Part shown: piece by piece, positions 1 through 59,905 of the stretch
Layout: each line of letters opens with the position of its first letter
Position numbering within the stretch: the stretch's first letter is position 1
DNA from: Octopus vulgaris
Taxonomy: Eukaryota
DNA length: 64,000 nucleotides
Direction of reading: 5' to 3'
Assembly: GCA_951406725.2 (NCBI GenBank)
Contig: OX597820.1
Location: 29,016,001-29,080,000 of the forward strand
The notes under the pieces: generated by a model
The model's input: the letters and a program-made list of their open reading frames with translations, nothing else
The model's database searches: none
Told to the model about the DNA's origin: nothing
Made by a program: the position numbers and the translations under genes

Positions 1-270
1 ATACATGGCATGATGGAAGGCCTTAAGAACTTCTTTATTATCTCCTCTAGACCATTTTTCATTCTTTTTCTTTTTTATTTGATGATGAGTGTGGATGGCA
101 ATCTGTTGGAATATTCTGGTGGTGGGGTACTTTCAGCTCCTGTGTTTCGGGAAGATTTGAACCAGTAGCTGATTTTTCGTACAGTCTGGTTCCTCACTGG
201 GGTACGCGACCTTTGTTTATCCGGGTGACGGCCGATCTGGTTTGTATTCTGTTTTGTTATCACTTACACA

Positions 271-375
271 TGACGAGCTTGGACGCTGACATTAGGAGAC
301 GGATCTGTCTGTCTAGAGTTAATTTTTTGAGACAGCACAGCCTCCGAGTTCTCTGAAGAAAAACATTGCTCGTAA
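271..375 (+). ncRNA. Degenerate hammerhead-like motif with non-circularly permuted segment order
   Basis: CTGTCTGTC(305-313) pairs with ACAGCACAG(332-340); AGAGTT(315-320) pairs with AGTTCT just before CTGAAGA(353-359); AATTTTTT before GAGA pairs with AAAACATT after the core; outer ACGAGC/GCTCGT helix. GAAA reads GAGA and there is an extra T after GTC. Confidence 0.4.
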
Positions 376-948
376 CGTAGCTTCTTAAGGCTAACAGATT
401 TGTATTCGTCTGTATTTATTTGTTGATAGATTTATCCCCGGGCATAGTGTTTTTTTTTTTTTTTGGTGGGGGTGTTTTTAAACTTATGAATTGTTTACAC
501 TGTCTGTGTTAGTTCGAAAAATAAAAAAAAAAAGTTTTTTTTCGTTTGTAACACGTGCTTTCATATGCGTGTATGTGTCCTGTAAATTTCAGGTAGTTGT
601 GTAAACATTAGGATATATGTGTAGTCCTATGGTTATTAAAATTTATATATGATTGTGTAGACAGTGTACTTACTGTTTTGTTTCACTTATATTTTATAAT
701 TTGTAAACTTTCCGATGTTGATTTCGAATGTGTCTTTCGCATATGTTTCACTGATACATCGTGCATGGGAGAAACTGTGCTTTGTATGGCAGTAAAATTT
801 CGTTTTTGTGATTATTTTCGTTAAAGGGCCGCATCCTTCAAGTCTTCCACAGAATTCTTTATCCCATTCCACCGATGTTATTAGATTATATTTGTTTTTG
901 AATGGGCAGCCCGATGTAGCGCATCCATGTTGTTATTCAGCGCGGAGC

Positions 949-1020
<72 letters not shown>

Positions 1021-1024
<4 letters not shown>

Positions 1025-1547
1025 TAGTTTTATTTTTATAGCGTGCTTTCACTTCACTACCGAGCGCAGCTCTGTGTGCCTTGGGTATGTGCTGTGATTT
1101 GTTGTGATGCTCTGATGGTTATTGTATGGAAAGTGTTCTACGTAGGATGTGTGCAGTGCCTAGTAGTGCAATTTTCTGTATGTTATATGTGTTTGTAAGT
1201 CCTGGTGTTTTTGTTATGCATTTGTCTGAATATTTTTTATCATGCCTAATGCACCTACTATGATAGGAATTGTTTCTGTTTTCAGATTCCACATTCTGGT
1301 TACCTCTATTTCCAGGTCTTTGTATTTTGAAAGTTTCTCCATTTCTTTTAGAGAAACGTTGTCATCTGCCGGTATTGATACATCAATTAGAAAGCATTTT
1401 TTTCTTCATGATCTCTGACAACTATATCTGGTCTGTTGGCCTTAATTTCTCTATCTGTGTGTATTGGCATATCCCAGAGTATGGTTGCTTTCTCGTTTTC
1501 TGTGACCTTTTCTGGTGTGTGCCTATACCATCTTTTTTCTGTTGCTT
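1021..1547 (-). mobile_element. 5'-truncated R4/Dong-clade non-LTR retrotransposon (restriction-like endonuclease C-terminus plus 3' UTR) in a (TAA)n tract
   Basis: Minus strand translates as WYRHTPEKV..ILWDMPIHTDREIKANRPDIVV..CFLIDVSIPADDNVSLKEMEKLSKYKDL..PIIVGALG..QKIALLGTAHILRRTLSIQ* (PD..D RLE motif; one frameshift); TTA repeats on both sides. Confidence 0.9.
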
Positions 1548-1990: not shown

Positions 1991-2276
1991 TCAGTAGTTT
2001 TATTTTTATAGCGTGCTTTCACTTCACTACCGAGCGCAGCTCTGTGTGCCTTGGGTATGTGCTGTGATTTGTTGTGATGCTCTGATGGTTATTGTATGGA
2101 AAGTGTTCTGCGTAGGATGTGTGCAGTGCCTAGTAGTGCAATTTTCTGTATGTTATATGTGTTTGTAAGTCCTGGTGTTTTTGTTATGTATTTGTCTGAA
2201 TATTTTTTTATCATGCCTAATGCACCTACTATGATAGGAATTGTTTCTGTTTTCAGGTTCCACATTCTAGTTACCT
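1991..2276 (-). mobile_element. Second, shorter copy of the R4/Dong-type 3' end
   Basis: Near-identical to 1021-1305; both ends in TTA repeats. Confidence 0.9.
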
Positions 2277-3134: not shown

Positions 3135-3960
3135 ATGACTCTACACTGTTTGTCTCTCTCTCTTACATTTACTTCGCATTCTACGTTGATCTGTCCCCTT
3201 CTCTCTCTCTTCTCTCTACTCATCCTCCTTTTCTCTTGCCTCTGATTCTTTGGTCTACTCTTCCCCTACCCTTCCATTTCTTTGTCTTGCCTTGCACTCA
3301 CAGGTCAATCTTTGACACCCATCCCTTCTCCCCTCTCTAATTCCTTCTTTCTCTCTCTTCTCCCCCCTTGTTGCTTTCGTCCCTCTTCTCTCTCTCTTCC
3401 TTCCTTTGCCTCCCTTTCTTTTCTTTTCTTTTCTCTCTTCTCCGTCACGTGACTGCTGGCCAAAATCCGCCTTTCGGCCTCTGACCAGCGCCGTGACAAC
3501 ATCGTTGTCCTTGTTCGCCGTTAAGGCTTCGCCGTTAAGGCTTCGCCGTTAAGGCTTCGCCGTTAAGGCAATTTTTCCAAAATACGCCAGCTAAACTTGT
3601 TTGCACTGTTATTAGTCGTAAGACACCTGCTGTTTTTACCATTATCGCTTTTGTATTTCATTATTGTTTTTTGTTTTTTATATTCGCGTGGCACCGTCCG
3701 TTTTGCTGTCCCTGTGTTCGTATGCATTCGATCCTTCTTCCAGGAAATCTACGCTCCTAGCTTAGTTTTTCTAATGCTCGTTGCTTAGTTTTTCCTGGAG
3801 GGCTGGCCGGATCTAGTAATCTCAAGATTAATCAGCCGAAATTACTACGATGATCCGGTTCTTGACTGAAGACTGAGGGCTTCGAATGTCCTGTCTGTGT
3901 TTGTTGTATCGCCTTCTAAGTGTTATGCGTTCTTGTCACAGTTTGTATTTTTTTTACATA
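3135..3960 (+). mobile_element. Non-coding repeat F (CT-rich tract plus permuted HHR-like motif, 3' end at (TA)n)
   Basis: Colinear homology with 52776-53470 on the minus strand (CGTGAC..TGGCC, GCTTAGTTTTTC, CTCAAGATTAATCAGCC, TGCGTTCTTGTC..TTTGTATTTT). Confidence 0.75.
3801..3888 (+). ncRNA. Candidate non-circularly permuted hammerhead ribozyme
   Basis: TAGTAAT-C(3821)-TCAAGA .. CAGCC-GAA-ATTACTA .. TCTTGA-CTGAAGA(3866-3872): stems III and I close exactly on the three core segments. Confidence 0.6.
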
Positions 3961-5064: not shown

Positions 5065-5135
5065 CTTGCTGAAGAGTCTAGCCTTGGCAGATAAATTATA
5101 TTCATCTGCTAAATAAGACGAAACTGCAGTACAAG
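5065..5135 (+). ncRNA. Type I hammerhead ribozyme
   Basis: CTTG-CTGAAGA-GTCT..AGAC-GAAAC-TGCA-GTA-CAAG; all core bases intact; palindromic stem III ACTGCAGT; stem II extended by TTGGCAGAT/ATCTGCTAA. Confidence 0.85.
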
Positions 5136-18820: not shown

Positions 18821-19142
18821 TCTTGTGTATTAGTGTATGTTTATATGTGTCTGTGTGCGTGTGTCTGTGCGCATGTATAAACATGTAAAAAAATAAGTAG
18901 TGAGCAGATATTGTAGAATTTTTATCTTAGTTCCTCGTAACCAGAATAACTTCATTATCTGCACTCCTGATTTTCGCATATATCGTCTTACAAAGACATT
19001 GAATTAATCATTGGAGGGGGCTGGGATAAACTACCTGCATCAACTTGCTATAAAACAGGTAGTAATTTTACCTTTGTTTTATTCTTAGTGCAAGTTCTGA
19101 AGAGTGCAGTTCGATTTTAACAGATATTTTTTCAAAGCTGTA

Positions 19143-24090: not shown

Positions 24091-24415
24091 TAATAATTAA
24101 TAATACTGGACACTGCACACATCCTACGCAAAACACTTTCAATACAGTAACCATAAGAGCATCACAGCAAACCCCAACACATACCCAAGACACACAGAGA
24201 TGTGCTCGGTAGTGAAGTAAAAGCACGCTATAAAAATGAAACTACAGAAGGAGAAGAAGCAGAAGAAGAAGAAGAAGAAGAAGAAGATCGAAAAATATGT
24301 TAGGAATGAGGACCCAGGTTCGAAATTTCCCCAAGATACCTGATGAAGGTTGGGGGGGTATATCAACAAACAAGATGAGGACAAATATCCGTCAAATGTA
24401 AATAATGTGAATAAA
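23985..24415 (+). mobile_element. Inverted partner copy of the tRNA-HHR element, disrupted
   Basis: Head start GGGCACATGGCGTAGT, (AAT)n, inserted Dong-type fragment, then body with CTGATGA but with GAAACGTT deleted. Confidence 0.7.
24105..24249 (+). mobile_element. Short R4/Dong-type 3' end in (TAA)n
   Basis: Reverse complement of 1021-1165; encodes TAHILRKTLSIQ*. Confidence 0.85.
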
Positions 24416-24591: not shown

Positions 24592-25148
24592 TAATAATGA
24601 AATTATTGTATACAGTGCTCAGGTGCACCACAACTTGTCAGAAAGTGCATATAAAGCATATGCAGTAATGTACAAATGTCTGGAAAGTGAACAGTGTATG
24701 AGTCAGATACATGCTTGTGTGTGTATGGAGGGAAGAAAATCAAGTGTAGTGTTGGCGAATCTCAGGAAGCATGGAAGTTTTGAAGGATGCAGTGCTCCGA
24801 CAACTAACAACTGATGCCGGCAGTTTGTTCCATGCTTCAGCAACTCTCAGCGTGAAAAAATGTTTCCTGATGTCATGGGAGCTGTGCTGTTTTCTTACTT
24901 TGTAAATATGTCCACGGGTGTTAGATGGGTGGAGTTTGAAAAGGTGCTCAGAGTTATTGTTTGTACGATGGTTGATAATTTTATGGGTGTCTGCCAAGTC
25001 AGCTGCCAGACGTCGGAGTTTCAATGTGTCCATGCCCAGGGAAGTAAGGCGTTCAGGATATGGCAAATGCCTGATGGAGGGTATTCTTTTGGTTGCACGT
25101 CGCTGAACAGCTTCCAGACGATTGATATCCTGGGCAAGATAGGGGTTT
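24592..25148 (-). mobile_element. 5'-truncated CR1-type LINE (ORF2 C-terminus plus 3' UTR)
   Basis: NPYLAQDINRLEAVQRRATK..LPYPERL..LKLRRL..NTRGH..RKHFFTLRVAEAWNKLPASVV; stop at 24740. Confidence 0.9.
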
Positions 25149-25529
25149 GTTTTGCATTGTCTTTTGTATTGTAAAGCATCTCTATGCAGCCTGAATGGGT
25201 AATAAAAAAAAGAGATAAATTAAATATCGGTGAAACACTGGGGTCGATCTAATCGACTATACCCCCTTCCCAAAAATTTCAGGCTTTGTGCCTATACTAG
25301 AAAGGATTATTATAATTATTATGTTTAAGGTGGCGAACTGGCAGGATCGTTAGCACGCCGGGTTAAATACTTAACGGCATTTCATCTCTGTCTTTACTTC
25401 CAGAGTTCAAATTCCGCTAGGGTCGACTTTGCCTTTCATCCTCTCGGGGTCGATAAAATAAGTACCAGTTACGCAGTGGAATTGATGTAATCGACTAGCT
25501 CCCCCCCAACCCCGCCAAAATTTCAGGCC

Positions 25530-29452: not shown

Positions 29453-30056
29453 TATTAAAAGCAGCTCGAGCTACCACGTGGCGGTTTCATCGCCTGTACA
29501 TGTTATGTTACTCATGATGTGGACTGCCTCAGAAGGCAACAATTCATTGCTCCTCTCTACTTACTGCTGATAGTGTATATCATACCACAATGCTTAAGAG
29601 GCCAGTGAGGCTACTAAATTTGCGTTTGTTTATCTTGTTAAATTGAAGCTATTCAAATTTTCTCTAGATTATTTTCATTAAATGAAGTCCAGATGTATTG
29701 TTTGTTTTGTTAGGTTTTTTTATTTTTGTTTTTTTTGCATGTTGAGAAAAATTGCATTCACTTTTACTAGAGATTGACAATAAAGAAGTTACACGCATTT
29801 AAGTTCGTGGGATTTTAGCCAATCAGAAGCCATAAATATTTTAAACTGCAAACGGTTGAAATTTAGTAACGTCTGCAGTTATTTCTGTTTAGATGTATCT
29901 TTATATGTTTAACTGGACTTGATGGGGAAATAGTGATTTAAGATGTAATATAACATAATATAATATAATAGTAATGATGCGGGTTTGGGGGCGATAAGAA
30001 CTGTAGCTGCTGCGATATCAAATTCTACTCCTTGCGTGTCTATGTGGTCTTTTATT

Positions 30057-30668
30057 CATTTCTACTCTAGGCACAAGGCCCGAAATTTTGGGGGAGGGGG
30101 TCAGTCGCTTAGATCGACCCAGTACGCAACTGGTACTTAATTTATCAACCCTGGTAGGATGAAAAGCAAAGTCAACCATGGAGGAATTCGAACTCAGAAC
30201 GTAAAGATAGACGAAATACCACTAAGCATTTCTCCCGGCGTGCTAACGTTTCTTATTCCTTTACTGCCCACAAGGGGCTACACACAGGAGGCACACAAGG
30301 ACAGACAAACGTTATTAGTCGATCATATCGACCCCAGTGCGTAACTGGTACTTATTTAATTGACCCCGAAAGGATAAAAGGCAAAGTCGACCTCGGCGAA
30401 ATTTGAACTCAGAACGTAACGGCAGACGAAATACCTATTTCTTTATTACCCACAAGGGGCTAAACACAGAGGGGACAAACAAGGACAGACATAGGTTATT
30501 AAGTCGATTACATCGACCCCAGTGCGTAACTGGTACTTAATTTATCGACCCCGAAAGGATGAAAGGCAAAGTCGACCTCGGCGGAATTTGAACTCAGAAC
30601 GTAACGGCAGACGAAATACCGCTAAACATTTCGCTCGGCGTGCTAATGTTTCTGCCAGCTCGCAACCT
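30057..30668 (-). mobile_element. SINE family A trimer
   Basis: Three units inside one 16-bp TSD TATGTGGTCTTTTATT (30041 and 30669). Confidence 0.92.
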
Positions 30669-31404
30669 TATGTGGTCTTTTATTGAGTCGGGGACCTAAA
30701 GGTATAGTCGGTTTACAACTTGAGATACGAACTGGTTTGCTTATATATTTTGCCGTGTATTATATAATTTGTAGAGACTGGGCCGAGCATGACCCACACG
30801 TCGGAATAACATGATGGATCTGGTATATTGGTATGTACCATTGTAGTTATTCATTCTGCTGACCAAATTTGCTATCGATGATGGTAAGATGGGCGGGCGG
30901 GCGGATTCGTCGTAACAATGCTAGCATTGGAGATGTCAGGATCTAATTGTTTTAACAGAACTGTAGAGGGATTTTCATTCGTCGTTTTGAAAGTGATGGT
31001 GGTTGTGTGATGGTTGTGGTGGTTGTGCTTATTGAAGAATATTCGAGCTTCTACTTCTGATCTTCTTGTTGTTGTTGTTGTTGTTGTTGTTGTTGATGAT
31101 GATGATGATGATGACGACGACGATGACGACGACGATGACTGATGATGACTGATGATCATGGTGGTGGTGGTGGTGGTGGTGGTGTGAAAGATGCTTGTGA
31201 TGGTGATGCTGATTGATTCAAATTTCCTAAAAACAATAATATATAGATGATGATGATGATTCCGCCGAAGTCGACTTTGCCTTTTATCCTTTCGGGGGTC
31301 GATAAATTAAGTACCAGTTGCGTACTGGAATCGATCTAATCGACTGGGCCCCCACCCCTAGAAATTCAGGCCTTGTACCTAGAGGAGAAAAGAATAATAT
31401 ATAA

Positions 31405-33256: not shown

Positions 33257-35988
33257 GGAACAATAGATCTCGAAGCAGATACAGTTATAAGTAACAGCGT
33301 GTGAACACTGGGTTAAAAATATTTTCGATAAATAAAAACAGGCAACAGGATTATTTTATGTTCTCTTGAAATTACTAAATTGTCATGGCGTCAGAACACA
33401 TCGTTTAATTTTGAATTTTTACTCGGCTTGATGTCGTCACCGTCATCGTTATCGTTGCTTTCATCGTATTTGTTTTTGTTGTTACTGCTATTGTTCTTTT
33501 GTTCCGTATCAGCCCTGATTCAGTCGTATGATGAAACGCGCCGTCACCTGTAACTACCCCACTTTTTTTTCTCGAACACTGTGTGTCAAATACCATACAG
33601 CCCAAGACATTTGAGTATGGTTTAAGACAGGTTTGGCTTTTGTTTCATGCTAATCAAGTGACAACGTAGAAAGGCGGTGAGCTGGCAGAAACGTCAGCAC
33701 GCCGGGCGAAATGCTTAGCGATTCGTCTGCTCAGTCTGCCACTACGTTCTGAGTTCAAATTCCGCCCAGTTTGACTTTTGCCTTTCATCCTTTCGGGGTC
33801 GATTAAATAAGTACCAGATACGCACTGGGGTCGATATAATCGACTTAATCCGTTTGTCTGTCCTTGTTTATTCTCTCCGTGTTCAGCCCCTTGTGGGTAG
33901 TAAAGAAATAGGTATTTCGTCTGCCGCTACGTTCTGAGTTCAAATTCCGCCCAGGTCGACTTTGCCTTTCATCCTTTCGGGGTCGATTAAATAAGTACCA
34001 GTTACGCACTGGGGTCGATATAATCGACTTAATCCGTTTGTCTGTCCTTGTTTGTTCTCTCTGTGTTCAGCCCCTTGTGGGTAGTAAAGAAATAGGTATT
34101 TCGTCTGCCGCTACGTTCTGAGTTCAAATTCCGCCCAGGTCGACTTTGCTTTTGGGGTCGATAAATTAAGTACCAGTTACACACTGGGGTCGAAGTTAAC
34201 GACTTAATCCCTTTGTCTGTCCTTTTTGTGCCCTCTATGTTTAGCTCCTTGTGGGCAATAAAGAAATAAGACAGTGGCTCCCTCGTGATTTTGCTGTTGT
34301 TTTGACAGTGTTATTGTTGTTTTTCTTCTCCTGTTTTTTCTTCTTTTTCTTCTTCTCCTCTACCTTTTCTTATGATTAAATCTGATGTTCCTTATACAAA
34401 TGACGATGATGATAGTGATGATGGATGTAATAACGATGACGACCACGATGACGAGGCCGATGACAACGGCAATGACGATGACAATGACGATAGTGAGGAT
34501 GAGAATGATAACGACGACGATGACAAAAATAATGACGATGACTACGACGACAACGATGATGTTGATGATGACAACGGCGGCGACGACGACAACGACGATG
34601 ACGTCATCAGTGAGATCAATGTTGCTTATTTTTTGCTGCTGTTATTGATGCTGCTGCTACTGCTGCTGCTACTGCTGCTGCTGCTATTGCAGTGGATGCA
34701 ACGTTCTTGTTGATGCTGTCTTCTCTGTTATTTCATTTGTTAATGTTGCGCTTCCTGTTTTTGAAGTAGTCCACGACCACCACGACGGTGATCAGATCGC
34801 TACTTTCTTCTGTTGTTTGTTTTTGTTTATTTTTGGTTTGTTTTGTTTTTGTTTTTGTTTTTTGTTTTCTTTTCTTCTATCTGTTTTACATATTTATTAT
34901 GTTGAAACCTGTGTTATGGAAAGCTTTGAAGTTTTCTTGGTTTCTTTCACATCTCCGCTCCTCACCACCTCGCTCGAAGAATTGAGTCAATGAAAAAACT
35001 TTTCGACTTTGAATAATGATATCTTAGCATATTTAGCCGGCGTCAAATGGAAGGCAATTGCACACACATGCAATCACACACACACACACACTCACACACA
35101 CACACATACACACACACACATACACACACACTCACACAAACACAAATACTCACATACATTCATACACACATACATAAATACACACATACACACATATACA
35201 CATACACACACATACACTTACACACACACACACACACACATAAATTAATACCATTATTATGATGCAACTCTTAATGTTGGTGAGCTAGCAAAATCGTTAA
35301 CAAGCCGGACAAAACGCTTAGCGACATATCATCCGTCTTTACATTTTGAGCTCAAATTCCGTCGAGTTCGCCTTTGCTTCTCATTCTTTCGCGGTCGATG
35401 AAACGATTAGCAATCAAGAACTGGTCTTAATGTAATCCTCTTGCCCTTCTCCTAAATAAAAAAAATGCTGATTCGGTGCTAAAATTTTGAAATGATTATT
35501 TTGTAATCATTTAAAGCTGCGAGTCGCAGAATCGTTAGTGCATCTGGAAAAAAAAAACCCCGTTGCGACATTTGTTCCCACTCTTTTCTTTTTGAGTTTT
35601 TGGAACAATAGATCTCGAAGCAGATATAGTTATAAGTAAAAGCGTGTGTGAACACTGGGTTAAAAACCTTATCGATAAATAAAAACAAGCAACAGAATCA
35701 TTTTACGTTCTCCTGATATTTCTAAATTTCTAAATTCTTATGGCGTCAGAAATTTGTCAGAATACATCATTTAATTTTGAAGTTTTACTAGGCTTGTCGT
35801 CACCGTCATCGTTATCGTTGCTTTCATTGTATTTGTTTTTGTTGTTACTGCTATTGTTCTTTTGTTCTGTATCAGCCCTGATTCAGTCATCGGTATGAAG
35901 AAACGCGCATCACCTGTAACTACCCTATTTTCTTTTTCTCGAATAGTGTGTCAAATGCCATACAACCCAAGACATTTGAGTATGGTTT
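33257..35988 (+). repeat. Direct duplication of about 370 bp (33257-33622 and 35602-35988)
   Basis: Both copies run from GAACAATAGATCTCGAAGCAG to CCCAAGACATTTGAGTATGGTTT with small indels. Confidence 0.9.
33670..34270 (+). mobile_element. SINE family A trimer
   Basis: Two AAGAAATA|GGTATTTCGTCTG junctions at about 33910 and 34094. Confidence 0.92.
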
Positions 35989-37289: not shown

Positions 37290-37830
37290 ATAGTTCACGT
37301 CCGACATGACTGGAGAGTCTGTTCTTCCGCTCTTTGTGAAAGAGACATGCTCCATTTGCTGTCACCACTCGCTGAGTGGAGAACAGGGCAGGCCGTGGCT
37401 GATGATGCGTAGGCCATGTAATAGTGGCGAGCATTACCTGTTCGAGATAAACTGCCTGAGAAGCGCTTAGTGCGACGAAGCCTTTCTGCCCACACTCTTT
37501 TATTGCCCGAACATTGTTCAATCGTCGAGTTAAAGCGAACAGCTGCTGTCCCGTAGTGGGATGGGCGGGGAGCAGATCCTGCTATCAAATGACTCCATTG
37601 CAGAAGATCGTCCCGCTTCTTTTGGCCGGGAACGATAAGCAGTTTTTATCTGTCTGGTGGTTTGGGGGGAAAGAGATTCTGTGGTGTGTGTGATACTGAA
37701 AGATCTGAAAATAGATAGTTCCCTCTTTGGCCAAGCGCTCATCAATTTTCATCAAGTTTCATCAGGAAAAGAAAGCGAGGATGGAGAGGGAAATGCTATA
37801 TCCCAGGAAATATTTTTGAAACGTGGATGA
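37290..37830 (+). pseudogene. Decayed Tx1/L1-type LINE ORF2 C-terminal region
   Basis: Frame-broken peptides PWLMMRR, EQLLSR, AVFICLVVWGKEILW, GQALINF, KARMEREML. Confidence 0.5.
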
Positions 37831-39397: not shown

Positions 39398-40640
39398 TGC
39401 CACTGATGGTGGTAATGATGATGGTGATGGTAAGGGTGTTTATTTCCTAGTCGATCCTGAGCAAGCAGGATGATTATTATTAACAACATTCCAAGTCAGA
39501 TCCTAGCATTCACAACCAAGGCATGTCCTCTCCACTCCAGGTTTGTTTTTCAGAGTAATCTTATTCTTTCAAATATACCAAGAACATTATCATTCTACAT
39601 GTACAGAGTTAACTTTTAAGTGATTATCATAAAAAAAAACTGTATCGTCGTTCCATTTGCCACGACATACTTGTGTGAATTTGGATTCATTTTCCGTATT
39701 GTCAATCAACATAAAACCCAGGAATCGCCTGATTCCACAGGCAAATGTATGAATCGCAATCAGTAAGAAAGTTCCTCGTTTTGATAAAGTCATCAAAGTG
39801 AAGAAGATGCAAAGAAGTTATTGAATTTTATGGTCATAATTGAAGATGAATTCGATATATACAGCAGATGTTGACAAACACATCATCGCTCCCATCATAG
39901 AACCGTTGATAACTTATCGACGTTCATCATGTAAATTTCTAGAATAAAATTAAAAAGTGTAATTAATATAATAAAAATTGTTGATGGAGAAACAATAATT
40001 TCATCGTTGTTTTGTATCATTACCGCTTTTTAATAAGAAATATCTAAAGAAACTTAATAAAAAATACTTAACGAAGTTGATAATGGACAATAAAAATTCA
40101 GTTATATATTGATATAGTCGGAATATTTAATATGAAAATGTTTGATGAACACTAGTTATTAGGTCGATATTTGGTTGGAAATGAATGAGTTGGAGCCTTA
40201 AAATACCTCGCTCTTCCAGATTCTGTTTGCTAATAATTCAGCACACTTAATGCTCAAAATCGTTTCAGTTGTTTATCCAGTCCTTTCGATATCCACAATG
40301 ACCCTCCACCCCTGCCACATTGGTCAATATTTGACCACTTTGCTAACGACCTCTGATTTACAGTTTCTTTTCATTGCTCAATTTACATTTGCATTTTATG
40401 TGTTGTGTCAAAAGTTTAAATTTTAAATCAATTTGTTCACCATGATATTGTATGTGGATCAATTTAAAGTTACAAAAAATACATTAGTTACTAGGAAACC
40501 GAAGTTTTCATTTTGCATTGCGACATTACTTTTGTTGCAGGTGGGGGTGAGAAAATTAATAAAACATTTCCCTGTGGTGTGGGGCATAGCAAATGCTGGA
40601 TAACACTGATCTAAATAGTCACGCGGTCATTCTTATACTA

Positions 40641-41213
40641 TTGGGTTGTCCGGAAAGTTTGTGCCGATTTTTAAAGGAAAGAAAAAGGTCAATAAATACT
40701 TGCCATAACCTAAGCTTTACCAGGTGCTCATGAACGACGGATTTTGATAGGTTGAGGCTTTCTGCCAATCCTCGGGTTGTGCAATGTGGATTATTCTCAA
40801 TGAATGACTTAATTTGGTCATCATCTGTAGTGGATGGTCTGTCTGATCGCTCTTTATCAATAAGGCTACAATCTCCAGCTCGGAACCTTGCGAACCACTT
40901 CCGTACAGTTCTTTCGGATAAAGAAACATCACCGTAAACTGCGCATATTTCTTGGTTGCTTATGAGGCATTTTTCCCTTTACGGAAAAAGAAAAGCATCA
41001 AGTGCCGAAAATGAACTTTCTTATCTTTCACTTTAAAGGGTTACATAATTAACACAGGTTATGGGAATATAAACCTTCTTCCACGAAAAGATAGCTTAAA
41101 CTGTGCTCTAAATGGAAGAGTAGTCAAATCCCATTTTATGGACTCAAACATGTTCTAAAATAAGTCGAAAGGTAAGCTACTATAAATCGGCACGAACTTT
41201 CCGGACAACCCGA
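40641..41213 (-). mobile_element. Non-autonomous mariner deletion derivative
   Basis: 30-bp TIRs TTGGGTTGTCCGGAAAGTTTGTGCCGATTT and AAATCGGCACGAACTTTCCGGACAACCCGA, TA TSDs, broken HTH (HFRHLMLFFFRKGKNA..VYGDVSLSERTVRKWFARFRAG..RSDRPS..VHEHL). Confidence 0.95.
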
Positions 41214-43974: not shown

Positions 43975-44430
43975 CTATTTGCAGAGCACCTTTTGAAACT
44001 CGGTAAAGGGAGAGTTGCAATTGATGAAGAACAGTTTCTTGCACTCAATCCAGTATGTAATTCAGCTGATTCCATCGATCGTTTTGGATCATGAGTACAT
44101 CTATATAGATCGGATCTGTGAACGAGCTATCCTGGCTCCAAAAAATGTTGCTGTAAATAGCATTAATAATATTCTATTGAATAAACTTCCGGGAGAAGTA
44201 TTCACTTATAACTCAATTGACAGTGTTGTTGATGATCAGGATAGTGTTAACTACCCCCATCGAATTTTTGATCTCACTAGAACCACCAGATGCAGCTCCT
44301 CGTTGTCTTCAGTTGAAAAGGGACTCCTATTATGCTATTACGTAATTTGTCTCAACCAATATTATGCAATGCTGCAAGATTAATTGTGCACAAACTTATG
44401 AGGGACTGCATAGAGGCAAATATTCTCCTC
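43975..44430 (+). pseudogene. Helitron PIF1-like helicase fragment
   Basis: FAEHLLKLGKG..ERAILAPKNVAVNSIN..LPGEVFTYNSIDS..NYP/EFL..PIMLLRNL..LCN; frameshifts present. Confidence 0.92.
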
Positions 44431-46246: not shown

Positions 46247-46352
46247 CAAATTTTATTCGCAGGGCGTTTGTCGGCACCTAATCATGCAAAACAACATTCT
46301 CATCGTCGTTATTTTCTTTAAGATGATGAGTGCCATTATTAGCTTTGTTGTT

Positions 46353-46920
46353 AAGGCGGCGAGCTGACAGAAACGTTAGCACACCGGGCGAAATGCTTAG
46401 CGGTATCTCGTCCGCCACTACGTTCTGAGTTCAAATTCCACCGAGGTTAACTTTGCCTTTCATCCTTTCGGGGTCGATTAAATATGTACCAGTTATGCAC
46501 TGGGGTCGATATAATCGACTTAATAATCCGTTTGGCTGTCCTTGTTTGTCCCCTCTGTGTGTAGCCCCTTGTGGGCAGTAAAGAAATAGGTATTTCGTCT
46601 AAAAAGGCGGCGAATTGGCAGAAATGTTAACACACCGGGCGAAATGCTTAGTGGTATCTCGTTCGCCGCAACGTTCTGAGTTCAAATTCCGCCGAGGTCG
46701 ACTTTGCCTTTCATCCTTTCGGGGTCGATTAAATAAGTACCAGTTACGCACTGGGGTCGATGTAATCGACTTAATCCGTTTGTCTGTCCTTGCTTGTCCA
46801 CTCTATGTTTAGCCCCTTGTGGGTAGTAAAGAAATAGGTATTTTTTCTACCGCCACGTTCTGAGTTCAGATTCCGCCGTGGTCGACTTTGCCTTTCATCC
46901 TTTTGGGGTCTATGTAATCG
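46353..46920 (+). mobile_element. SINE family A multimer
   Basis: Two headed units plus a partial one; AAGAAATA|GGTATTT junctions at about 46588 and 46836. Confidence 0.9.
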
Positions 46921-52729: not shown

Positions 52730-52775
<46 letters not shown>

Positions 52776-52776
<1 letters not shown>

Positions 52777-53470
52777 ATAAAATACAAAATGGGACAAGAA
52801 CGCAAAGCATCCGGACAATTAGGTGATACAAAAAGGGACAACAAAACATCCAGACAGACGATAAAAAAACACGGACGGGTCATTCGAAGCCTTTTATCTT
52901 CAGTCAAGAACCGGATCATTCTCGCAATTCCGGCTGATTAATCTTGAGATTGCTCCAATCTGGCCAGCCCCAAGAGAAAAACTAAGCTAAGAGCATTAGA
53001 TTCCTTGGAAAAAAGCATCGAATGTATACGAGACAAGGACGGAAAAACAGACGATGTTACACGAATATAAATACAAAAGTACAATAGAAAAACAATAATA
53101 ATAATGATAACAGGACATATCAACAGAGGTCTTTCAACTGGGGACGAATTGAATTCAGGTGGCCTGTGTGGAAATGAAGCCTTACGGCAGAGGGAAGAAT
53201 GTCGATGTGGCAGTGACCATGATCAAACACAAAAAGGGCTAGCAGACGGCCAACGGTCACGCGAGAAAAGAAGAGAGAGAAAAGGAGGAACAAATTAAGG
53301 AGTGGAAGATGAGAGAGAGAGTGCGTAGAAGTAGAGAGATGGGAGAATCAAGGAGTGGCGAGAAAAAGGAGAGAGACAGGGACATAGTGAAGTGCAGAGT
53401 GAGTAAGAAAGGCAAAGAAATGTGAGAGAGAGGGAGGAGAAAGAGTTGAAAAAGTCGTACAAAATTTAGT
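52776..53470 (-). mobile_element. Non-coding repeat F, second copy
   Basis: Homologous to 3135-3960; its 3' terminal 29 bp recur at 53543-53571. Confidence 0.75.
52881..52970 (-). ncRNA. Second copy of the permuted HHR-like motif (GAAA mutated to GGAA)
   Basis: Minus strand GCAAT-C-TCAAGA-TTAAT-CAGCC-GGA-ATTGC..TCTTGA-CTGAAGA-TAAAA-GGCT. Confidence 0.55.
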
Positions 53471-53763
53471 GAAATGTGTACATACATATAAGAGAACAAA
53501 GTGTACGTACGCCGCTATATATAGATATATATATATATAAAATAAAATACAAAATGGGACAAGAACGCAAATACGTTTCAACCCTAAAGTTGTGGGCATG
53601 CTGGGGCAGTGTCAGTGTAAAGGTATCATACTCTACTGCTCTACCGACTGAGCTATATTCTCAAACCCACACATACATACACACACACATATAGACACAC
53701 ACATACACACACACACATACACACACACACACACATACACACATACACACACACACACACACA

Positions 53764-59094: not shown

Positions 59095-59905
59095 CATTTG
59101 GAGATCCCTGTAAAGCAGCAGGATAAACAGCATTCTTGGTTTTACCATTTGGTGTGAGTATGAAGAGATTGCTGACATTTCCAACTCTGGGACAACAAAC
59201 ATAGAGCTGACCTTAGGAAAAGCACTGCTGCATGAGATGAAGTCCAACAATTTTTAGTGATTGTCCTTGACTCTTGTTAATTGACATTGCAAAACTAACT
59301 CTTGCTAGAAATTGAAGTTTCTTGAATTCAAAGGGCATGTCTGCTTAAATCAGTGGAATTCTTGGAATAAACACATTTCCTCCCTTTCCTTGTCCAGTGA
59401 GGATTTTTGCTTCCAAAAGATGCGGATGCATTTGCCTGGGATTCAGTCTTGTTCCCTTGCATATCTTTGGAGGATCCAGAGCATCATTTCCCAAAAGCAT
59501 CATTGGAACTTCTTTCTTTAATGTTAGTTTGTGAGAAGACATTCCAGGAGGACCCAAAAAGTTAAGAAACTCAGTAGGATAATTCACAGCCTCATTGGGC
59601 TCCACAACAGTATCAACTGAGAAATATTTCTTCTTTTCTCAGTATTGATTGATTGCATGATTTTTCAATTAACAACCTGGACAATTTCATTCTTCGGTGC
59701 AAGAATGGCTCTCAAAAAGCCAATAATGATCTTGAGAATTATGTCCAAGTTTGGGTAACCCTTAGTAATCAACTCTTCTACAGTTTGACCAAAATGCTAC
59801 AGCCATTTTGAAGGGTGATATCTCCAGTACTGGTTTCGCTGAATGCTTCCATTTCTATTTCCCAGATCCAGTGGCTGAGCTGCAAATCTTTCAGCATCCA
59901 AATCT
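59095..59905 (-). pseudogene. Helitron PIF1-like helicase C-terminal fragment
   Basis: RAILAPKN..NYPTEFLN..PPG..HKLTLK..PMMLL..GTRL..FIPRIPL..FAMSINKSQGQSL..GQLYV..TKNAVY; stops and frameshifts present. Confidence 0.95.

Follow-up and report, generated by a model that had tools for sequence, protein, structure and literature searches.

The hammerhead-like layout at positions 271-375 of the window analyzed here, a 64,000-nt stretch of Octopus vulgaris DNA (contig OX597820.1), is best regarded, with some reserve, as a chance look-alike that lies antisense to a decayed LINE and has no ribozyme function. On the minus strand, this region reads as an almost uninterrupted frame for which homologs exist, and its fold is a single long hairpin. 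By analogy with published A14G data, the locus is probably neither a working nor a recently dead ribozyme. The hammerhead-like match is uncommon, yet a fair null attains that level in 1-11% of shuffled windows, and the match is thus not clearly beyond chance. The case is a caution that a hammerhead-like layout can come from an unremarkable hairpin on the strand opposite coding DNA, and the locus should not be taken as separate evidence for repeat F, a repeat of the same window that appears to be its strongest candidate permuted hammerhead, with the 5' strand of stem II placed upstream. This side result on repeat F and the Naiad elements matters more than the locus itself.

A hairpin antisense to a LINE-like frame

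Read directly from the sequence, the plus strand carries GUC (311-313) followed by U314 and AGAGUU (315-320), then AAUUUUUU (321-328) and GAGA (329-332), and farther downstream AGUUCU (347-352), CUGAAGA (353-359), and AAAACAUU (360-367), with flanking helices GGAG (295-298)/CUCC (342-345) and ACGAGC (273-278)/GCUCGU (368-373). The initial annotation, which had proposed a permuted hammerhead here, placed all of these motifs correctly. Its 8-bp stem III does contain eight pairs, but this count includes U312-A332 and requires a 1-nt bulge at C336; an extension of stem III within 294-303 pairs with 342-346. Putative stem I has six pairs including two G·U (best duplex -0.6 kcal/mol), and stem II, drawn with the downstream partner originally proposed, has seven A-U pairs and a U·C mismatch (best duplex +1.6 kcal/mol) and lacks the G10.1-C11.1 pair. 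A 4-bp CGAG/CUCG pairing that might link stems I and II at their far sides (-2.8 kcal/mol) shares nucleotides with stem I. The ensemble pairing probability is 1.0 for C313-G331 and 0.73 for U314-A330, such that GAGA and the extra U become part of one continuous hairpin stem; stems I and II are pseudoknotted and lie beyond the reach of nested folding, and their zero probabilities are uninformative. All features are collected in Table 1. The locus lies between the two copies of a 9-nt direct repeat, TTTGTATTC, at 241-249 and 400-408, possibly by chance in AT-rich DNA, and the lowest folding z score (-3.75) of 36 window-strand tests in 1-960 falls on 351-460 (+).

Table 1. Features of the locus, of repeat F, and of the adjoining LINE-like elements
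Feature	Positions	Strand	Evidence
Hairpin 5' arm/putative stem III, ending in GUC (U16.1 = 312, H17 = 313)	305..313	+	8 pairs, probability 0.99-1.0
Extra U314 and putative stem I 5' strand (315-320)	314..320	+	Sequence, duplex energy, pair probability
Putative stem II strand, A/U run; overlaps UUAAU pentamer 319-323 (the repeat F linker)	321..328	+	
GAGA replacing GAAA (A14 = G); G331 paired with C313	329..332	+	
Hairpin 3' arm, C336 bulged	333..340	+	
Putative stem I 3' strand and CUGAAGA; minus strand = codons of SSENSE	347..359	+	
Downstream stem II partner of the initial annotation	360..367	+	Duplex +1.6 kcal/mol
Alternative upstream stem II partner, 294-299	294..303	+	6 pairs, 3 G·U, +0.7 kcal/mol
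Outer helix 273-278/368-373 closing the long hairpin	273..373	both	
Repeat F copy 1: stem II 5' strand 3801-3806, stem III and extension, UC 3820-3821	3801..3872	+	
Repeat F copy 1, continued: stem I 3822-3827/3860-3865, GAAA 3838-3841, CUGAAGA 3866-3872		+	
Repeat F copy 2: same layout, GGAA for GAAA	52897..52969	-	
Decayed LINE-like N-terminal coding region; continues past window end	1..445	-	Frame reading, homologs
Probable 5' region of same LINE-like element, ending at (TAA)n junction	541..948	-	P0004 collinearity, junction 948/949
(TAA)n tract (949-1021) and 3' end of neighboring LINE copy, endonuclease-like C terminus	949..1545	-	
Second LINE 3' end	1992-2276	-	

The LINE-like frame on the minus strand opens with an ATG (445-443) and is interrupted by a frameshift at ~417-420, an internal stop (264-266), and a frameshift in an A-run at ~70-75. 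Across 72-425 (-), this frame has two stops in 118 codons versus four and seven in the other two minus frames; the mirror plus frame across the same interval likewise has two. A phmmer search of 1.84 billion representatives retrieved three homologs (E values of 2.7e-20, 2.6e-6, and 5.3e-4), which are known as proteins alone and were chosen through open frames; two cover the locus and the third, P0004, does not. P0002, which is 59% identical, starts at the ATG of the window. P0004 is collinear with 660-559 and 260-6 and has no counterpart of approximately 285 to 490-540, a stretch that contains the ATG and the entire locus; this corresponds to either a deletion or a preinsertion state. Word-index protein searches with P0001 returned no longer relatives (0 of 47 candidates) and no near relatives (0 of 1), and an alignment search with P0001 gave no proteins beyond the same three among 1053 candidates. 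None of 13 pattern matches in GTDB genomes was confirmed as a relative of the LINE-like ORF, and Atlas was uninformative on a 30-aa N-terminal piece. Within the window, BLAST with 200-450 and with 1-900 found no further copies, and tblastn of the homologs gave the locus itself as the sole significant match. We infer that the minus frame is the N terminus of a LINE protein; there is no RT domain within the window, whose edge truncates the element.

The LINE-like element adjoins (TAA)n at 948/949, its 5' end starting with GCUCC, and the neighboring LINE 3' ends at 1022-1545 (-) and 1992-2276 (-) are 98% identical over 285 nt. Another LINE 3' end with an endonuclease-like C terminus lies beside (TAA)n at 24104-24245 (+). 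A shifted frame near the window edge holds what we take to be the N-terminal motif of Dong/R4 LINEs. The host element is probably a Dong/R4 LINE, a label that comes from these presumed motifs and the (TAA)n junction and is inferential because Pfam, PDB, and Atlas name no family: for the neighboring LINE pieces, Pfam (8 proteins) at cut-off and PDB gave nothing significant, and the Atlas look-alikes of the neighboring 3' end are unnamed eukaryotic clusters at 0.95. Dong/R4 LINEs and the host element are alike in the (TAA)n target, the endonuclease-like C terminus in the neighboring 3' ends, and an ORF on the minus strand. The ribozyme of Dong is HDV-like and sits on the sense strand, at the 5' end, whereas the locus is an antisense hammerhead look-alike; a relaxed home-made descriptor, used without a positive control, found no HDV-like ribozyme at the 5' junction of the host copy, which is decayed. 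The junction sequence GCUCC resembles a Bombyx mori Dong junction primer (PMC3774820), and Dong-R4 is described as abundant in Octopus vulgaris (PMC13282606).

The protein alignment bears directly on the core. On the minus strand, 330-332 encodes Ser, both in the window and in the two homologs that cover it. GAAA on the plus strand would need Phe here and cannot result from any of the six Ser codons; it is therefore excluded. A G at hammerhead position 14 would thus be a family trait among copies ~40% apart in protein. The initial annotation had supposed a dead copy whose family consensus restores GAAA and a perfect stem I, and had named relatives with GAGA as evidence to the contrary; at the protein level, the two covering homologs contradict that restoration. 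Codon 312-314 (-) encodes Arg in the window and Asn in both covering homologs; if this Asn codon were AAC, a shifted register would do away with the extra U but introduce a bulge into stem III. P0002 has a Tyr that implies a changed G8, and P0003 implies a changed G12. At the level of these two protein sequences, no compensated pairs can be inferred, and breaks are present. A14G completely abolished self-cleavage (PMC4889925) and serves as an inactivating control (PMC3505972).

These observations suggest how the layout could arise. The LINE sense RNA or its complement would form a hairpin, and nothing would be cleaved. The stem carries GUCU paired with AGAC, a pairing that brings the cleavage triplet and the GAGA core into register automatically, so that the two defects are simply two more pairs. 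CUGAAGA is the reverse complement of ordinary Ser-Ser-Glu codons, and stems I and II are marginal pairings between purine-rich and A/U-rich runs. Even were the pseudoknot to form, G14 and a paired C17 would be expected to stop catalysis.

Chance level and comparison with type SGC

The blocks of the locus follow the order S-G-C, which circular permutation of the hammerhead cannot produce. Type SGC hammerheads (HRIMA-1 and variants; Eckert et al. 2023, PMC10085705) and the locus share the order of cleavage site, GAAA position, and CUGAnGA, the direct joining of a stem I strand to a stem II strand, and a pseudoknotted topology. The locus differs in its GAGA, the extra U after H17, an A-U closing pair, an unstable stem II, the lack of visible covariation, and its antisense position within a coding region. 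Non-circular hammerheads have so far been reported from metagenomes and metatranscriptomes (PMC10085705); published SGC examples come from contigs of this kind, and the paper lists none from known-organism genomes bar one weak GCS candidate (PMC10085705). Within the literature searched, type SGC is named only in Eckert 2023 (PMC10085705).

A descriptor tailored to the locus gave one match in the window and none in 60 locally shuffled windows, a test that is circular because the descriptor was fitted to the locus. When any of the three non-circular orders was admitted with two defects (a mismatch in the core and an inserted base), the locus score of 21 was equaled or exceeded in 24 of 300 shuffled windows. 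In a scan that barred overlapping stems and itself scored the locus at 17 pairs and -4.2 kcal/mol, the hand-scored thresholds of 22 pairs and -5.8 kcal/mol were reached by 20/400 and 45/400 shuffles, respectively, and both together by 9/400; for the S-G-C order alone, the corresponding figures were 4/400 for pair count and 20/400 for energy. Matches to an SGC-order descriptor of chance-level strength occur at 37325-37405 (+) and 19027-19103 (+); sites 19097 and 37399 equal the locus on one measure, and 37399 has an intact core and short stems.

Published models do not recognize the locus. The published SGC RNAMotif descriptor (CUGAUGA(U)G, CGAAA) has no matches in the window, also when N7 and the closing pair are relaxed, and Rfam gives none across the window at gathering score. 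At E ≤ 10, no Rfam ribozyme model matches within 150-1000, where five weak unrelated matches were returned, and among the 150 matches listed of 451 in the whole-window scan nearly all are microsatellite-driven microRNA. A twister on the minus strand, suggested by the words UAA and UCCAAGC, was rejected: the P4 and P2 partners are absent, and by eye the words could not be fitted to the folded structure. Reading either the locus or repeat F as canonical type I was likewise discarded for want of a downstream stem I partner. The canonical type I hammerheads of Penelope-like elements, with the order C-G-S and nested stems, are unrelated to the locus.

Repeat F and the ends of Naiad elements

Repeat F occurs in two copies, 3636-3960 (+) and 52771-53110 (-), that are 72% identical. 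Both have an in-register stem I of 6 bp without mismatches, and the core of copy 1 is fully intact; with an intact core, none of 400 shuffles reaches -12.8 kcal/mol. Stem II with its upstream partner amounts to -8.3 kcal/mol, and on a template with stem II upstream copies 1 and 2 score -28.8 and -21.3 kcal/mol, where the best of 500 strict shuffles gives -7.6 and 2 of 500 relaxed shuffles reach -20. Copy 1 is the only strict match to this template in the window. Across both copies, pairing holds in 49 of 52 cells and one change is compensatory, and covariation among these two sequences is not significant (240/500 shuffles); nor are model positions significantly better conserved (40/45 versus 205/251, p = 0.29). 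Reading repeat F as type SGC was rejected, as this needs a 5-nt insert after A9 and the upstream partner is both stronger and shared with Naiad ends. The motifs of repeat F were not found in GTDB genomes or in the supplements of the Naiad paper (PMC8557442) and of the Octopus repeat paper (PMC13282606), so that assignment of repeat F to Naiads is one of layout. A ~35-nt tail is present at both ends of repeat F copy 2 (53534-53569 and 52771-52804, -) and also at 3926-3960 (+); these tails end beside (TA)n or (CA)n, like Penelope-like element tails and partial tandems.

Naiads were reported to lack canonical hammerheads, although cores or half cores that match no descriptor occur in some (Craig et al. 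2021, PMC8557442). We read Naiad layouts by eye from the consensus DNA in that supplement, without computation or a null. Sixty of its 62 CUGAUGA places were covered: 25 are rows of the canonical-motif table, 16 lie in later (Chlamys, other) records, and 19 lie in probable Naiad records, as judged from neighboring headers. Ten of these 19 Naiad places fit a permuted hammerhead layout by eye and nine do not. Two of the 10 show the full type CSG layout, closing helix included, one of them immediately before the nematode record Naiad_Hcon. The other eight, in five sequence types that include Naiad_Obim and Naiad_Ovul, are core-split. Their 5' half runs stem II 5' strand, extension, stem III, UH, stem I, and linker, and their 3' half stem II 3' strand, GAAA, stem III, stem I, and CUGAUGA. 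Stem II is a perfect 6-bp helix in all eight, e.g., GACACC/GGUGUC in the Octopus records, and stem I is only 2 bp in one. Among 30 of the 43 CUGAAGA places in the same supplement, inspected by eye, there was no clear further case.

From these layouts, it appears quite likely that Naiads carry non-circularly permuted hammerheads, type CSG in nematode families and the core-split form in cnidarian, mollusc, and other families, and that repeat F belongs with them. In the core-split form the backbone would be open between A9 and G10.1, with cleavage being putative; Eckert et al. assumed CUGAnGA and stem II to be inseparable (PMC10085705), and this form is apparently undescribed so far. In the literature searched, outside which most subscription journals lie, permuted hammerheads are described for neither Naiads nor octopus. 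If true, the core-split form explains the Naiad cores and half cores that fit no descriptor and puts non-circular hammerheads in animal genomes at high copy number. The earlier suggestion that the shared architecture marks a class of elements is supported by repeat F under strict nulls and by the 10 of 19 Naiad places read by eye, but not by the locus from which it was partly drawn.

The locus is indeed unrelated in sequence to repeat F, as first described: 471/5000 shuffles score as well against copy 1 and 1419/5000 against copy 2, and the locus is not among the 22 matches at E ≤ 10 of a covariance model built from both copies. Of the parallel drawn between flanking helices, the stem III extension does recur in repeat F, whereas the outermost 5' segment of repeat F is the stem II partner and not a closing helix. 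In repeat F and in 8 of the 10 Naiad places, the stem II partner lies upstream, unlike stem II as originally drawn at the locus. The locus resembles Naiad ends and repeat F in S-G-C order, similar spacing, a UUAAU linker, the stem III extension, and a possible upstream stem II partner; Naiad ends and repeat F have an intact GAAA, in-register stems I and II of mostly 5-6 bp, G10.1-C11.1, and an element 3' end by (TA)n, none of which the locus has. Block spacing from U16 to G12 is 17 nt in the locus versus 18 nt in repeat F, and from G12 to C3 24 versus 28. On the upstream-partner template, the locus scores -11.8 kcal/mol with both defects admitted, a value reached in 93/2500 shuffles. The UUAAU linker is common to the locus, repeat F, and three cnidarian Naiad ends; template plus UUAAU occurs in 0/2500 shuffles and template plus UUA in 8/2500, for a feature chosen after looking. 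The locus fails the repeat F template on stem I register (H17, C3) and on an intact GAAA, and it sits inside a collinear LINE-like ORF and not at the 3' terminus of an element, where a tail and (TA)n would follow.

Rival readings of the locus and the rest of the window

The block spacing near that of repeat F, the shared UUAAU linker, and the lower nulls for the S-G-C order alone run counter to a chance mimic, and the spacing and the linker also lend some weight to an ancient fossil, in which a Naiad-type (repeat F-type) permuted hammerhead of the core-split class was captured antisense by a LINE ancestor, died, and is now N-terminal coding sequence. Such a fossil would also account for the purine strand located upstream at the right place and for the CGGA/UCCG extension resembling those of repeat F and Octopus Naiad ends; ribozyme-like ends of this type do occur in the window (two F copies per 64 kb), and the segment missing from P0004 may be an insertion. 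An internal deletion accounts equally well for P0004, however, and the linker was picked post hoc. There is no significant similarity to repeat F and no match to its model, the upstream stem II is marginal at +0.7 kcal/mol with three G·U, and stem I is out of register at a point where the homologs have no indel. We consider this origin rather doubtful, and the joint proposition that the core-split class is real and the locus a member of it unlikely.

It is very improbable that the locus is, as the initial annotation had it, a dead copy of a second, functional type SGC family with a GAAA consensus and a perfect stem I. The S-G-C block order is genuine, CUGAAGA is intact, the tailored descriptor singles out the locus, and, with stem I trimmed to 4 bp, block C could be closed by the CGAG/CUCG helix in the manner of type SGC. 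Against this stand G331 in the window together with the Ser that rules out GAAA in both covering homologs, the lack of any compensated pair in either homolog, and a stem II without G10.1-C11.1; furthermore, in Eckert 2023, only three of 583 type SGC predictions are atypical, none at A14 (PMC10085705). This family reading is largely refuted already.

Selection for pairing on the sense (minus) strand is a further candidate: the 5' LINE RNA would be structured for protein binding or translation, and its complement would mimic ribozyme stems. Structured 5' coding segments are found in R2-type elements, and the long hairpin folds somewhat better on the minus strand (z -2.96 and -3.30) than on the plus strand (-1.61 and -2.14). 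Unselected 110-nt windows, however, give the region just -1.5 and -1.7, with others reaching -3.75, and in P0002 two of six outer-helix pairs are broken, or three of six on the minus strand, uncompensated. We regard such selection as quite improbable; it is compatible with the chance-mimic explanation and does not exclude it.

The window as a whole is AT-rich, microsatellite-laden, and populated by many dispersed repeats. Canonical type I hammerhead-like motifs are found at 5069 (+), 8428 (+), 23770 (-), 24340 (+), and 43338 (-)/43480 (+), none of which Rfam calls at gathering score; the motif at 24340 looks decayed, and 43338/43480 is an inverted pair with GAGA in the 43338 copy and GAAA in its twin. 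A 159-codon open frame at 24740-25219 (-) resembles the C terminus of a CR1-type LINE protein, and frames at 40619-40978 (-), 43997-44383 (+), and 59345-59638 (-) resemble part of a mariner-type transposase and two fragments of Helitron/PIF1-type helicases. Finally, an abundant SINE-like repeat of ~230 nt, partly tandem with a ~185-nt period, is found at 30053-30672, 33655-34271, and 46352-46918 and in many single copies.
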